20,000 nucleotides of DNA, taken from IMG/VR virus record IMGVR_UViG_3300004481_000138; one strand, written 5' to 3'. Under the pieces are notes generated by a model. It searched no databases and had not been told where the DNA came from. It saw only the letters and a list, made by a program, of their open reading frames with translations. The DNA is from an uncultured virus (IMG/VR IMGVR_UViG_3300004481_000138). Taxonomy: Duplodnaviria; Heunggongvirae; Uroviricota; Caudoviricetes. The first letter of the stretch is position 1, and every line of letters begins with the position of its first letter. The position numbers were made by a program, and so were the translations under genes. Shown piece by piece: positions 1 through 19,935 of this stretch.

Positions 1-6
1 TATGTA

Positions 7-67
7 TCATAGCGGAGAGTAAGTTGAAACCAAATTGATGGATTTTTAGGAACTCTCTATGCCATGA
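7..67 (-). ncRNA. Hairpin RNA unit A (conserved scaffold + 24-nt variable loop)
   Basis: UCAUGGC/GCUAUGA stem, 3x1 internal loop, GAGAGU/ACUCUC helix, loop UCCUA-N24-UU; paralogous to unit B at a 70-nt period. Confidence 0.65.
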
Positions 68-75
68 ATGTGAAG

Positions 76-138
76 TGACAAGCGGAAAGTAATTTTTCGT
101 TTGAGTTGAGTTTTTATAGGAACTTTCGTTGCCTGTCA
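76..138 (-). ncRNA. Hairpin RNA unit B (conserved scaffold + 24-nt variable loop)
   Basis: UGACAGGC/GCUUGUCA stem, 3x1 internal loop, GAAAGU/ACUUUC helix, loop UCCUA-N24-UU; begins about 20 nt downstream of the TATA box at 159-166. Confidence 0.65.
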
Positions 139-251: not shown

Positions 252-334
252 TACCGGATGCAGGATTCGAACCTGCGGTAGCACTAAGCCATTGGGTCTA
301 GACCAATGCTGGTTGACCTCTGCAGCAATCCGGT
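252..334 (-). tRNA. tRNA-Leu(TAG), C33
   Basis: Acceptor ACCGGAT/ATCCGGT, A73, long variable arm, anticodon arm ATTGG-TCTAGAC-CCAAT. Confidence 0.85.
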
Positions 335-337
335 GTA

Positions 338-449
338 TGCGAGGAGTAGGATTTGCACCCACGGTGTGAAACTTATTCAACCAGATATCTCAGCTAGTCT
401 TGAGTTTAGCCCTTAAGTCTGGCCCCTTCGACTACTCGAGCATCCTCGC
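338..449 (-). tRNA. tRNA-Leu(TAA) with 25-nt BHB intron (387-411)
   Basis: GCGAGGA/TCCTCGC; CCAGA CT TAA G|intron|A TCTGG; canonical BHB (CTTA/TGAG central helix, GCTA/TAGC outer stem). Confidence 0.92.
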
Positions 450-453
450 TTTA

Positions 454-543
454 TGGAGCTGTGGGGAATTGAACCCCATGCATCCTCATCTCTTTACCAT
501 TATGGTATGCAAGTGAGGCGGTCTACCGATGGCCTACAGTCCC
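454..543 (-). tRNA. tRNA-Ala(TGC) with 18-nt intron (490-507)
   Basis: G3:U70; CCTCA CT TGC A|intron|A TGAGG; relaxed BHB. Confidence 0.9.
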
Positions 544-544
544 A

Positions 545-619
545 TGGAGCCACCAGAGGGATTTGAACCCTCACCCAGCTGCTTACAGGGCAGTCGCACG
601 ACCGTCGTGCTGTGATGGC
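545..619 (-). tRNA. tRNA-Thr(TGT), C8 and C33, CCA encoded
   Basis: GCCATCA/TGGTGGC, U73, loop CCTGTAA. Confidence 0.88.
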
Positions 620-625
620 GGTTGA

Positions 626-696
626 TGGGGTTACCGTGATTTGCACACGGGCTGACGGTTCTGGAGACCGTTATGCTCCTGCTACATTACAACCCC
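626..696 (-). tRNA. tRNA-Trp(CCA)
   Basis: GGGGTTG/TAACCCC; ACGGT CT CCA GA ACCGT. Confidence 0.92.
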
Positions 697-772
697 TGGC
701 GTAGCCAAAGAGACTTGCACTCTTACCCTCGTGCTTAACAGGCACGTGCTCCACTACTTGAGCTATGGCCAC
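697..772 (-). tRNA. tRNA-Asn(GTT), CCA encoded
   Basis: GTGGCCA/TGGCTAC, G73; CGTGC CT GTT AA GCACG. Confidence 0.93.
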
Positions 773-3103: not shown

Positions 3104-3174
3104 TGCAGTTGCTGGGATTTGAACCCAAAACACCTCCTTGGTGGAGAGGTATGATACCATTTCACCACAACTGC
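3104..3174 (-). tRNA. tRNA-Gly(ACC), C33 A34
   Basis: GCAGTTG/CAACTGC, A73; CCTCT CC ACC AA GGAGG. Confidence 0.85.
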
Positions 3175-3248: not shown

Positions 3249-3253
3249 ATGAA

Positions 3254-3342
3254 TGCTCCTGGCCAGATTTGAACTGGCGTCTCAAAGTTTCTTCATTATT
3301 AATTCCAAAGCCTTGTATGCTTGGCCGCTACACCACAGGAGT
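3254..3342 (-). tRNA. tRNA-Gln(TTG) with 16-nt BHB intron (3289-3304)
   Basis: CAAGG CT TTG G|intron|A CTTTG; BHB helix CTTT/GAAG; A1-C72 mismatch. Confidence 0.9.
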
Positions 3343-3348
3343 ATATAA

Positions 3349-3580: not shown

Positions 3581-3715
3581 CGGGTTTGCTGGGTATCGAA
3601 CCCAGACCTCACTGCTAACTCCAGGATGTACTCACTCCCACATGGTTTTGCAGTTGTGTAGTCAACCTATCCATCCTTAAAAGGCAGGTGCGCTATGCCA
3701 TTACGCCACAAACCC
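3581..3715 (-). tRNA. tRNA-Lys(TTT) with 61-nt intron (3617-3677)
   Basis: GGGTTTG/CAAACCC, G73; CCTGC CT TTT A|intron|A GCAGT; BHB-like CTTT/GGAG with AGGATG/CATCCT. Confidence 0.88.
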
Positions 3716-3869: not shown

Positions 3870-4142
3870 ATTTATGTATAGAATCTTTTTCTTGTTCCCA
3901 TAAAGGGAAAGTATAAAAAATTTCTTAGAAAATTTCTCAAAATGGGAGCAATGAAAGATTTTATGATTGCCTGCCGACTATAAAGTATGCAGGCACAATT
4001 CGCTCTCCGTGTTCCATTTTGTCTATCATAAAGTGTGAATGTATTTTACCTCAAAAAAAATTCATCTGGCGACGTTGACCGTTTTCATTACAGGCATCAC
4101 CAGGGGTCATTTATTAATTCTATTATAGTAAAACATTACTAA

Positions 4143-4162
4143 TATTTAAAGTTTATGATTTT
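4143..4162 (-). promoter_or_regulatory. BRE+TATA promoter of tRNA array 2
   Basis: AAAATCATAAAC-TTTAAATA. Confidence 0.78.
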
Positions 4163-4297
4163 AATGATGGTTTAATCAAGTTTTTTGGTATCTTTAAGTC
4201 TAGTAAAACACCTGTTATTTTTACTTTCAAACCCATTTTTTCTAGCTCCTTCTTTATATCATGTGGAGTCCATGGATTATTTTTCGGAATAATTATA

Positions 4298-7741: not shown

Positions 7742-8401
7742 TTACTGTTTTACACTTTCAGTATATGGAACACTATCCTCAACCCATTCATATCTTGTCT
7801 TATGTTGTTTGATATTAGGTATGGCCTGTAATATCTTACGTTTGTAGTTTCTCAAGCTAACACTGGTGATTCCAATAATTCTACAATATTCTTCCTCGGT
7901 CACCCTATAATCCTCAATCCTGTCAGCAAGATATGATATAGCTGCGGCAAGTGATGGTGAATTATCACCAACAACAACATCATGTTTCTTCAAATAATCC
8001 AATAAAAAATATGCTCTTGCATAGGATTCTGGCGGCGAATGAACCACAGCTTGCACCATATCTATATATTTATCAACAGTTGTTGGCTGGAAATACCTGC
8101 CTATAACTTGTGAGATATGTCTTGATGTATTATAGATTATTGAACTGCCCTTGGCACCTTTTGTATCTAAATCAAGTATATCGTTCATTCTTGTTGGTGT
8201 CATAGGTTGATTCCATCTCCTGCATGCCAAATATATTATTGCAGATGCATACCGTTCAATGGTTCTGCCACGCAGTTTCTCTTTAGATATATATCTATCA
8301 AGTATTTGTATTGCTTCATTCTCTATCTTTCTATCAAGTTTTAATGCTGAGCAATCTATACCTATCTCTCTCACTATATTATCATAGCTGTTAGTCCTCA
8401 T
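7742..8401 (-). CDS. tfb: Transcription factor B (TFB/TFIIB) cyclin-fold core, no Zn ribbon
   Basis: Two cyclin repeats: RGRTIERYASAIIYLACR..QPMT and GDNSPSLAAAISYLA...VTEEEYCRIIGITSVSLRNYKR. Confidence 0.85.
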   Translation of the reverse strand: MRTNSYDNIVREIGIDCSALKLDRKIENEAIQILDRYISKEKLRGRTIERYASAIIYLACRRWNQPMTPTRMNDILDLDTKGAKGSSIIYNTSRHISQVIGRYFQPTTVDKYIDMVQAVVHSPPESYARAYFLLDYLKKHDVVVGDNSPSLAAAISYLADRIEDYRVTEEEYCRIIGITSVSLRNYKRKILQAIPNIKQHKTRYEWVEDSVPYTESVKQ

Positions 8402-13281: not shown

Positions 13282-13312
13282 CTGTATTTCGTCAATATTA
13301 AAAAGTTTAATG

Positions 13313-13332
13313 TATTTATAAATTTTACGGAT
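13313..13332 (-). promoter_or_regulatory. BRE+TATA promoter
   Basis: ATCCGTAAAA-TTTATAAATA followed by TTAAACTTT. Confidence 0.65.
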
Positions 13333-13350
13333 ATCACTACCATCAAGTGA

Positions 13351-13563
13351 CTAAACAAATTTATCTGCTGGATAATCCATATCATTATATCTTTCCATCC
13401 AATTATCCTCACCGTGGTATACTAAAACATCACATTTAATCATTTTCTTATTTATACGCAGATTTCTAACAATAATAAAAACACCACTTTGATGGCTTAA
13501 TCCCATATGATTTAACTCATACATTTCAATTTTATCTTTTAACTTTTTTTTGTCCACTTTCAT
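13351..13563 (-). CDS. Hypothetical protein (start MKVDK)
   Basis: GGAGTG SD. Confidence 0.6.
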   Translation of the reverse strand: MKVDKKKLKDKIEMYELNHMGLSHQSGVFIIVRNLRINKKMIKCDVLVYHGEDNWMERYNDMDYPADKFV

Positions 13564-16718: not shown

Positions 16719-16740
16719 TTTATCCTCCAATATATTTTTA

Positions 16741-16787
16741 TGACTAACGATATAAAGTTTAACATATTTAAATAGTTTACGGATTTT
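16741..16787 (-). promoter_or_regulatory. Promoter with 23-bp conserved downstream element
   Basis: AAAATCCGTAAACTA-TTTAAATA, then GTTAAACTTTATATCGTTAGTCA. Confidence 0.75.
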
Positions 16788-16815
16788 ACTATCATACAGT
16801 GACAACAATATGAAA

Positions 16816-17085
16816 CTATATTATTTTCCACTCCTCTGTATTAGGAATACAATCAACAATATATTGAACTTCACAAAGGTTATTACTATCAGTCTCCTCA
16901 GCCAACACCATAGTGCCCCAAACATAAAGTTCATCACCTAACAAACTATTCATAAGTATTCCAATTACTTTTGTATTATCTTTATTTAAGGCTACAACCT
17001 TAATCCAGAAACTCTCTCGTTTATAATGAACTTTTAATTCCTTATTTGAATTAATGTAACCTCTGTCTTCTCCATATTCAATCAT
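16816..17085 (-). CDS. Hypothetical protein
   Basis: ESFWIKV...GILMNS; AGGTGA SD. Confidence 0.7.
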   Translation of the reverse strand: MIEYGEDRGYINSNKELKVHYKRESFWIKVVALNKDNTKVIGILMNSLLGDELYVWGTMVLAEETDSNNLCEVQYIVDCIPNTEEWKII

Positions 17086-18949: not shown

Positions 18950-19094
18950 CCTATCTCCTTTATATCCTTACACAATCTTTATAATCACATAGTGATTTTA
19001 ATACAGTATATTATATACCCACACATGAATCACCGCTTAATTCTCAATTAACCGGTGAACAATAACATGATATAGTATAGTATTAAAAGTTTAT

Positions 19095-19141
19095 TGACTA
19101 ACGATGTAAAGTTTAACTTATATATAAAGTTTACGACTTTT
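19095..19141 (-). promoter_or_regulatory. Promoter with 23-bp conserved downstream element
   Basis: AAAAGTCGTAAAC-TTTATATA, then GTTAAACTTTACATCGTTAGTCA. Confidence 0.78.
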
Positions 19142-19244
19142 GTAACCACGTAGTGACTACACTATGAAAGTAAGTTGATAAGTATATCATATCTAAGTTC
19201 AAGTTCAAATTTAGATTTTAGATTTAGGAATTGAAATAGGAATA

Positions 19245-19353: not shown

Positions 19354-19407
19354 GAAAAAAGAAAAAGAGAAAAAGAAAAAAAACAATCCCCCTTACTTTG
19401 GGGATTG
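19354..19407 (-). terminator. Hairpin + long U/C tract terminator
   Basis: CAATCCCC/GGGGATTG hairpin spanning the stop codon, followed by TTTTTTTTCTTTTTCTCTTTTC. Confidence 0.7.
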
Positions 19408-19740
19408 TGCCTTAGGCATTATCTTCAAGACATCATCTGTCTCTTCAACCTTGTAAGTTGACCACCAACCAGGCGGGTTGCTGTTCTTGCCACGCTCACT
19501 TGTGATACAGCCTATGATAGCTCCTATCTGAGCAGTCACATGCTCTACCGTGATTGCCTTGCCTTTGATGTTCTTCGTAATCCCCTTCCTTGCGAGATGG
19601 GCTACGACCTTCTGTGCTAATTCACTTCTGCTCTTAGCACCAGCAGGTGCCAATTCACGGACGGTGTCCGCGATTGTAACCTTAGGCTTGGCTTTTGCGG
19701 CCTCCGCCTTCTTGTCAACTACTTTCTTGTCTTCTGCCAT
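19393..19740 (-). CDS. Lys/Ala-rich basic protein, possibly DNA-binding (start MAEDKK)
   Basis: GGAGG SD; strong terminator; basic composition. Confidence 0.75.
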   Translation of the reverse strand: MAEDKKVVDKKAEAAKAKPKVTIADTVRELAPAGAKSRSELAQKVVAHLARKGITKNIKGKAITVEHVTAQIGAIIGCITSERGKNSNPPGWWSTYKVEETDDVLKIMPKAQSPK

Positions 19741-19935
19741 TTTTGGCCTCCGTGTCCTTATGGACATACGTTTCAAGCGGATTTGAATAATGTTATTATT
19801 CAAACCCTAATACATTACTTAAATTCAAAGTAATGTATTAAGCACATATACAGCAACTTTGAAAGCTGTTGTGTATACATACACAACAATCAGTAAAGTT
19901 GCTTTTACTGTGCTAATTTTAGTAATGTCTATTAG

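Follow-up and report, generated by a model that had tools for sequence, protein, structure and literature searches.

The two hairpins at the left end of the window, by which we mean the whole stretch of 20,000 nucleotides analysed here, are a real and uncatalogued feature, and by sequence pattern and predicted fold they are members of a widespread, uncatalogued handle-RNA family of phages, bacteria and archaea. The best explanation that we can give, with a probability of about 0.55, is that the handle of each RNA is bound by a partner protein of about 600 aa and that the loop displays part of a tRNA or an AU-rich strand, which would tether or decoy enzymes acting on tRNA. The first-pass annotation of this DNA had described a virus-encoded array of hairpin RNAs in which the scaffold is constant and covaries and the loops vary. 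This description is supported, and the array matches no Rfam family. The coordinates of the units and of the features around them can be seen in Table 1.

Table 1. Features of the handle-RNA units, their promoter and the adjoining tRNA genes. Positions are those of the window; the order within paired segments follows the minus strand.
Feature	Position	Strand	Remarks
Promoter, archaeal-type, predicted	159-172; TATA 166-159	-	Purine-rich BRE and TATA box; 34 nt before first GC of unit 1
RNA unit 1	about 76-138	-	Promoter-proximal; outer stem 138-131/83-76; 3x1 loop 130-128 / 84
RNA unit 1, inner part	6-bp helix 127-122/90-85; 31-nt loop 121-91	-	
Loop 1, variable part (24 nt)	93-116	-	A/C-rich, predicted unpaired
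Linker separating units 1 and 2	69-75	-	Size similar to linkers of related arrays
RNA unit 2	7-68	-	Outer stem 67-61/13-7; 3x1 loop 60-58 / 14
RNA unit 2, inner part	6-bp helix 57-52/20-15; 31-nt loop 51-21	-	
Loop 2, variable part (24 nt)	23-46	-	Weak internal hairpin, 6-nt loop
Window edge	1-6	-	More units and/or the partner gene (about 600 aa) predicted beyond
tRNA operon directly upstream of units	252-772	-	Two genes intron-containing
Intron-containing tRNA genes	338-449, 453-544, 3253-3343, 3581-3715	-	By eye Leu TAA, Ala TGC, Gln TTG, Lys TTT
tRNA Trp CCA gene	626-696	-	Missed by ARAGORN

The minus strand of positions 1-150 folds as exactly two hairpins (z = -6.11, with none of 200 shuffles equal), the plus strand of the same segment gives only z = -1.35, and unit 2 taken alone gives z = -4.87 (0/200 shuffles equal). 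Both the covariance model and the strict pattern count two units over the window. Covariance model R2 scores unit 1 at 53.9 bits and unit 2 at 56.1 bits, both units having been part of its training alignment. No Rfam family reaches threshold on the units; the only Rfam signal over them is a sub-threshold hit of Afu_335 on the plus strand (16 bits versus 50, E of 5). The units fit the handle pattern, which has a 3x1 loop of the form RC-ANA / C-GY, a 6-bp helix with a GU/AC end and a loop of the form UCCU(A)...U. What had been read earlier from the letters holds well in the window itself: there are two units at a 70-nt period, a BRE-TATA element directly before the array, a 3x1 internal loop in both units, and a GARAGU/ACUYUC helix that occurs as GAAAGU/ACUUUC and as GAGAGU/ACUCUC, with one compensatory change. 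The BRE-TATA element (170-159) belongs to the same promoter family as those before tRNA operons at 935-950 and 4139-4164.

A pattern derived from the window retrieved 14 viral stretches, 12 of which fold as the same hairpin, some of them as arrays; the other two (L005 and L009) did not reproduce the hairpin fold and were set aside as chance pattern matches. The family motif consists of a stem, the 3x1 loop, the 6-bp helix and then UCCU(A)...UAC. Pairing in the handle was evaluated on 157 distinct units whose halves were set by conserved letters only; the five variable pairs are 95.2% Watson-Crick, versus 46.2% +/- 1.6 for shuffled partners (maximum 51.7% in 2000 shuffles) and 55% when halves were swapped within a locus. 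In an alignment of 62 units, which were selected to begin with a GC pair and to be fully paired, the handle pairs G-C, C-G, G-C and U-A are invariant and the adjacent pairs covary. The covariation of the outer stems, claimed earlier from the two window units, is seen in this alignment at outer-stem pairs that were not used for selection. Two details do not carry over from the window to the family. The outer stem ending in GGC/GCU with a conserved G-U pair is present in both window units, but the same position in the 62 selected units is G-C in 36, A-U in 17, G-U in 8 and U-A in one. The spacing of exactly 24 nt between UCCUA and UU is likewise true of both window units, whose loops are 31 nt, but over 254 distinct loops of the family the length ranges from 18 to 120 nt and is 31 nt in only 15.

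The RNA and the protein are linked in both directions. The partner gene lies within the fetched flank in 9 of the 12 hairpin-bearing viral stretches. A search with the partner protein gave 77 viral loci, and the motif is on the gene strand in 68 and on the opposite strand in none of them, a count in which the motif halves are set by conserved letters only; the strict pairing pattern gives 56 versus 0. When GTDB was searched with the RNA first, the partner was within 3 kb at 29/32 loci, the exceptions being L099, L122 and L125. A co-conserved protein gene, which the annotation had proposed to look for, is thus present at motif-bearing loci in the form of this partner. Arrays reach up to 8 units. 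Cultured carriers include cyanophages S-CRM01, with three units, and S-CBWM1, with one, in whose records the partner is annotated as hypothetical and the RNAs carry no annotation, as well as Chryseobacterium tongliaoense. At one locus (L013:460-597) a Hatchet ribozyme precedes an array of two units and the partner gene by about 1 kb.

The position of the units relative to the partner gene would also fit a different function, namely that the hairpins are cis-regulatory leaders, 5' UTR operators by which the partner would regulate its own translation or stability, with the number of copies tuning the response. We consider this, the main rival, unlikely as the whole explanation. It agrees with the 177 of 187 units that lie upstream of the partner gene on the same strand, with the many bacterial chromosomal loci that have a single hairpin immediately before the start codon, and with the archaeal-type loci, where the first unit begins at the predicted transcription start. 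On the other hand, 10 units, distributed over 5 loci, are found downstream of the partner gene, units at four loci (L002, L099, L122 and L125) are dispersed among tRNA genes with no partner close by, and an operator needs neither the permuted tRNA modules nor the anticodon stem-loops that are found in the loops. The leader function and the display of tRNA parts are compatible and can both be true. Among the units without a partner, one is an orphan in a complete phage record of 35.5 kb (L007:9996-10061), in which the partner is not detectable. L099 has five units over 5 kb, two of them with permuted tRNA modules, and the partner was not found in its incomplete genome. Genes for tRNA are present in 16/61 viral, 3/27 GTDB and 6/31 metagenome loci.

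A scan of metagenomes for a TATA box together with the motif gave 73 stretches, in which real and chance matches are mixed. The partner is on the same strand in 36 of these, and in 32 of the 57 that have at least 600 nt downstream. The spacing from TATA to unit is 29-35 nt in 38/40 fully paired matches versus 9/24 unpaired ones, and it is 34 nt in the window. A few of the loci are bacterial, and the same pattern has no match in viral contigs. Judged by these predicted elements, the family includes a class that lies behind archaeal-type promoters. Within a sample of 301 Asgard-phylum genomes a full-length partner is present in three (in one case divided between two contigs), and weak partial matches occur in two more. 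Units precede the partner gene in L112, L120 and L205, and in L205, an Asgard-phylum genome, two handle RNAs and the partner are located far inside a long contig. The archaeal labels of L108 and L125 are doubtful because no TATA was seen upstream, and these loci may be misbinned phage DNA.

The partner gene is absent from the window. The contig, which is 75,254 bp overall, runs on leftwards past the window edge, and we predict that the gene lies just there. The prediction is based on the order tRNA cluster, TATA, units, partner in L173 and L148, on the similarity of L171 and L179 to the window, and on the Asgard loci. In L171 much of the tRNA order of the window, its HNH gene and two units recur before the end of the contig, and L179 encodes the phosphoesterase of the window, at 54% identity, two genes past the partner. 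Against the prediction stand the closest HNH/tRNA relatives, obtained with the HNH query (L015 and L016), in which both units and partner are missing, and the orphan unit of the complete phage L007. Queries with the DUF6745 protein and the phosphoesterase returned no close viral relatives.

The loops differ in content as well as in length. The G content over 165 loops is 1.5% at the A-rich positions 5-11, 16.6% in the centre and 4.1% in the last five positions, and therefore only a short core between the nearly G-free linkers varies freely. In the long loops (80 nt or more) a T-loop stands ahead of a D-loop in 13/17, and two long loops of L014 match positions 23-88 of the 114 of the YrlA model (RF02553) with 36.8 bits and E of about 3e-6. 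On this evidence the long loops hold a predicted circularly permuted tRNA module. For 120 short loops we used an anticodon stem-loop test, which counts 7-nt YUNNNRN loops that have a closing stem and compares the number to shuffles. With a 3-bp stem 29 loops pass versus 9.2 +/- 2.7, and with a 4-bp stem 17 pass versus 3.2 +/- 1.7, with 0/300 shuffles as high in either case; the enrichment peaks at 7-nt loops. There is no enrichment with a 5-bp stem (3 versus 1.1), 91 of the 120 short loops fail the test, and so do both window loops. The class with archaeal-type promoters is only weakly enriched, at 4/32 loops versus 1.4 +/- 1.1 (21/500 shuffles). Exact anticodon 7-mers of tRNAs from the same loci occur in 35/116 loops versus 24.9 +/- 4.2 (6/500), and the three looser of the four sequence-only anticodon statistics are not significant versus dinucleotide shuffles. 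Since the window loops fail the test and the archaeal class is weak, tRNA mimicry covers part of the family only and is not established for the two window RNAs. A Leu(CAA) mimic, suggested by the UCAA common to the window loops, is a lead at most: the archaeal class has UCAA in 7/32 loops versus 6.0, with no enrichment, and YUCAA is enriched in the same class (7 versus 3.1, 7/500) on a post hoc count only.

The anticodon stem-loops bear on a reading in which no protein is needed, the hairpin merely stabilising an RNA that absorbs anticodon nucleases or tRNA-binding defence proteins. Their enrichment agrees with such free decoys, as do the existence of orphan units and the place of the window units among tRNA genes. 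We nevertheless find this reading improbable, because the two-way linkage to one protein and the invariant letters of the handle point to a dedicated binder, and because the window loops are not anticodon stem-loops. The word decoy had already been offered in the annotation as one option for the array; the anticodon stem-loops and the permuted tRNA modules lend it some support at the level of the family.

The annotation had named guide or antisense RNAs among its options; in this reading the 24-nt loops would base-pair with nucleic acid of the host or of a virus and bring the partner to it. A constant scaffold with variable single-stranded loops, the tandem layout, the co-conserved protein and the equal length of 31 nt of both window loops would suit such a function. 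It is, however, very unlikely in view of the wide range of loop length, the short variable core left by the linkers, the recurrence of loops across loci, and the lack of a nuclease domain in the partner by sequence and fold searches. For the two window loops, antisense matches in the window and the fetched loci do not exceed shuffle level. As to recurrence, a 14-mer is common to the members of 13 loop pairs from different loci, several of these pairs coming from close relatives, and window loop 1 appears similar to the first loop in L133 and in L153, with which it shares ACUCAA. It is extremely improbable that the loops are anti-CRISPR or CRISPR-related RNAs pairing with the 5' tag of a host crRNA: the reverse complement of loop 2 does start GTTGAAAC, as the annotation had pointed out, but this is not a family feature because the tag complement occurs in only 2/225 short loops of other loci (shuffle mean 0.5, 7/200 shuffles as high), and in one of the two it is a Glu anticodon loop as well. 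The sense tag occurs in none of the 225, and no cas gene is among the 30 window proteins scanned.

The partner protein falls into at least 2,548 clusters (90% identity) and has no match in Pfam, PHROGs or PDB sequences, and so no TROVE, vWA, RING or Nop match. Its structure model (pLDDT 78.6) has a C-terminal domain of TerD fold, which aligns to 2qz7 with Z of 11.2 and rmsd of 3.3 over 143 residues. The N-terminal 395 residues are modelled as helical (pLDDT 87.8) and gave no clear fold match by Foldseek and VIA-align, with a best Z of 6.9; for this reason we do not call the partner a TROVE protein. Ro60 (1yvp) aligns to this part with Z of 5.5 and rmsd of 3.4 over 67 residues at rank 33, which is background level. 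A remote kinship is possible. Four conserved basic residues (K220, R259, K261 and R347) would fit RNA binding.

RNA-repair types account for 6/79 first downstream genes, namely a CCA/poly(A) polymerase, RlaP (2), a PNKP phosphatase, an RNA ligase and a metallophosphoesterase, where the 79 genes are 80 minus one fragment of a split partner and the share is a raw count. A set of 26 further neighbours, picked by hand, includes RtcB, an R2K ATP-grasp protein, a Band-7 protein and two CCA/poly(A) polymerase-like proteins. In Chryseobacterium tongliaoense (L127:1524-5836) rtcB, two handle RNAs, the partner and rlaP follow each other on one strand. The gene classes of these neighbours are listed as RNA repair in section 3.4.9 of PMC7824862, which also mentions, without detail, a 'ROT/TROVE' protein in some jumbo phages that may or may not be the partner.

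Returning to the explanation that we prefer, the units would be the small non-coding RNA component of a modular ribonucleoprotein. The predicted binding site of the partner is the invariant handle, with its R-C-A-N-A bulge, the 6-bp helix with a G-U/A-C end and UCCU(A)...U. The loop would be a slot in which an insert is displayed; this may be a permuted tRNA module, an anticodon stem-loop or a small hairpin, or else an AU-rich single strand, and the window units would have the last of these in the slot. By analogy to Y RNA, which tethers Ro60 to PNPase, the RNA would tether the partner to enzymes that recognise or cut tRNA, or would act as a decoy for them, and a tRNA-rich virus could thereby keep translating while host nucleases damage tRNA. 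We infer that the RNAs are transcribed, processed to single units and bound by the partner, and that they probably have a role in a conflict over tRNA damage. This explanation is supported by the covariation, the partner linkage in both directions, the tRNA inserts, the repair neighbours and the TerD fold. It is weakened because the window loops and most short loops of the family fail the stem-loop test, the partner gene is outside the window, repair genes are a minority of the neighbours, orphan units exist, L015 and L016 lack both unit and partner, and tRNA genes are uncommon at the loci. Since cultured carriers exist, the system is directly testable.

A wider version, which we put forward tentatively and think rather doubtful, is a modular ribonucleoprotein unrelated to Ro60, in which a universal handle and arrays of interchangeable tRNA parts (elbows, anticodon loops, single strands) would make re-programmable baits or sensors against tRNA-cutting defences in bacterial and archaeal viruses and some cells. 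If the preferred explanation is right, the family would be a second RNA-protein system of the Ro/Y kind that differs from the first in both its protein and its RNA handle. It is without a model in Rfam or Pfam and extends to archaeal viruses and to a few genomes of the Asgard phylum, and tRNA-mimic RNAs would gain a testable role in the virus-host conflict over translation.

In comparison to known systems, the family would work like Ro60 with YrlA and YrlB and yet is not a member. As in that system (RF02553), the RNAs have an end-paired stem with an internal bulge, likely a protein site, and lie beside the gene of a large helical protein on the same strand. The long members, like YrlA, have a permuted T arm, closed acceptor stem and D arm, which the short members do not have, and one locus is linked to RtcB (L127). 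The family is nevertheless outside Ro60/Y RNA because the GNCGAA motif is absent, RF02553 stays below threshold and the partner has a TerD fold where Ro60 has vWA. The motif, which in Y RNA and YrlA is given as GNCGAA(N)G in the 5' strand of the terminal stem in PMC4201824, is found in 0/157 family handles and in neither of the two window units. The long relatives reach 36.8 bits versus the RF02553 gathering score of 69 with the Ro-binding stem unmatched, the two window units lack the permuted tRNA module, and the partner has no TROVE or vWA match in Pfam. Arrays of up to 8 units, anticodon stem-loop inserts and archaeal-type promoters are further differences. A phage can carry the known system: according to PMC12135203, Thermus phage phiLo has Ro60/Yrl.

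The partner also has some likeness to the MXAN_6230/SCO0854 RING-domain proteins. Four of 8 members match NF041916 weakly (best E of 1.6e-10, far under the 600-bit cutoff), and comparison to the Atlas structure of a Prok-RING_4 (PF14447) cluster gives a TM of 0.72 by query. In the Pfam description of Prok-RING_4, the RING is joined to TerD and to ROT/TROVE-like repeats, and the protein may act in a complex that processes RNA. Unlike these proteins, the partner is about 600 aa and has no RING match in Pfam, and the literature searched contained no description of an RNA partner for the RING-domain proteins.

The tandem small RNAs with a constant scaffold, variable segments and an adjoining protein gene are reminiscent of the guide arrays of TIGR-Tas and CRISPR. 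In contrast to a CRISPR array, every unit has a covarying stem of its own that closes it, and the loops are not of one length (18-120 nt). Searches of the 30 window proteins and of 105 neighbours gave no Cas match, apart from one TnpB/Cas12f-like gene. In a TIGR array, box C and box D motifs flank two short spacers and the Tas protein has a Nop domain. Here box C is found in 1/225 and box D in 19/225 family loops (shuffle means 0.4 and 13.3), and the partner has no Nop domain match. The window units resemble archaeal C/D and H/ACA sRNAs in being short hairpin RNAs with an internal loop, but the 3x1 loop (ANA/C) is without the tandem G-A pairs of a K-turn. The annotation had not recognised a CRISPR, TIGR, C/D or H/ACA architecture here, and loop lengths, box counts and the absence of K-turn G-A pairs agree with this. 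A search of literature lying for the most part outside subscription journals gave no description of the handle RNA or of its pairing with a protein. The handle motif is absent from six supplementary files of PMC10690425; a bare listing elsewhere in that source is possible.

The window looks like part of an archaeal virus because of a TFIIB-repeat protein, repeated BRE-TATA promoters and 23-24 tRNA genes. The TFIIB-repeat protein, a TFB homolog (7742-8401, minus strand; E of 1.3e-15), has no close relative in the protein collection searched. Four of the tRNA genes have introns in the anticodon loop, and ARAGORN wrongly calls two of these four 'Stop'; the Gln gene among them (3253-3343) folds like a bulge-helix-bulge site. 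The tRNA region also contains the HNH gene and a calcineurin-like phosphoesterase. Some tRNA calls have anticodons that are odd for an archaeal setting (Arg ACG, Ile TAT and Gly ACC; 2295-2368, 2532-2603 and 3104-3174, minus strand).

Further structured segments were observed in the window. Between the promoter at 935-950 and tRNA-Asn, the minus strand of 775-905 has two strong hairpins (z = -5.3, 0/200 shuffles) without an Rfam match at threshold, which are possibly a further small RNA or a leader. A structured leader at 3880-4120 on the same strand lies between the promoter near 4150 and tRNA-Met (z = -3.3, 1/200 shuffles). A Lys/Ala-rich ORF of 136 aa with higher GC (19393-19803, minus strand) has no Pfam match and could be a DNA-binding protein. 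Finally, a promoter-like element of 83 nt with a double TATA-like block is present in three copies (13284-13366, 16736-16818 and 19090-19172) and is possibly an early promoter or a regulator site.
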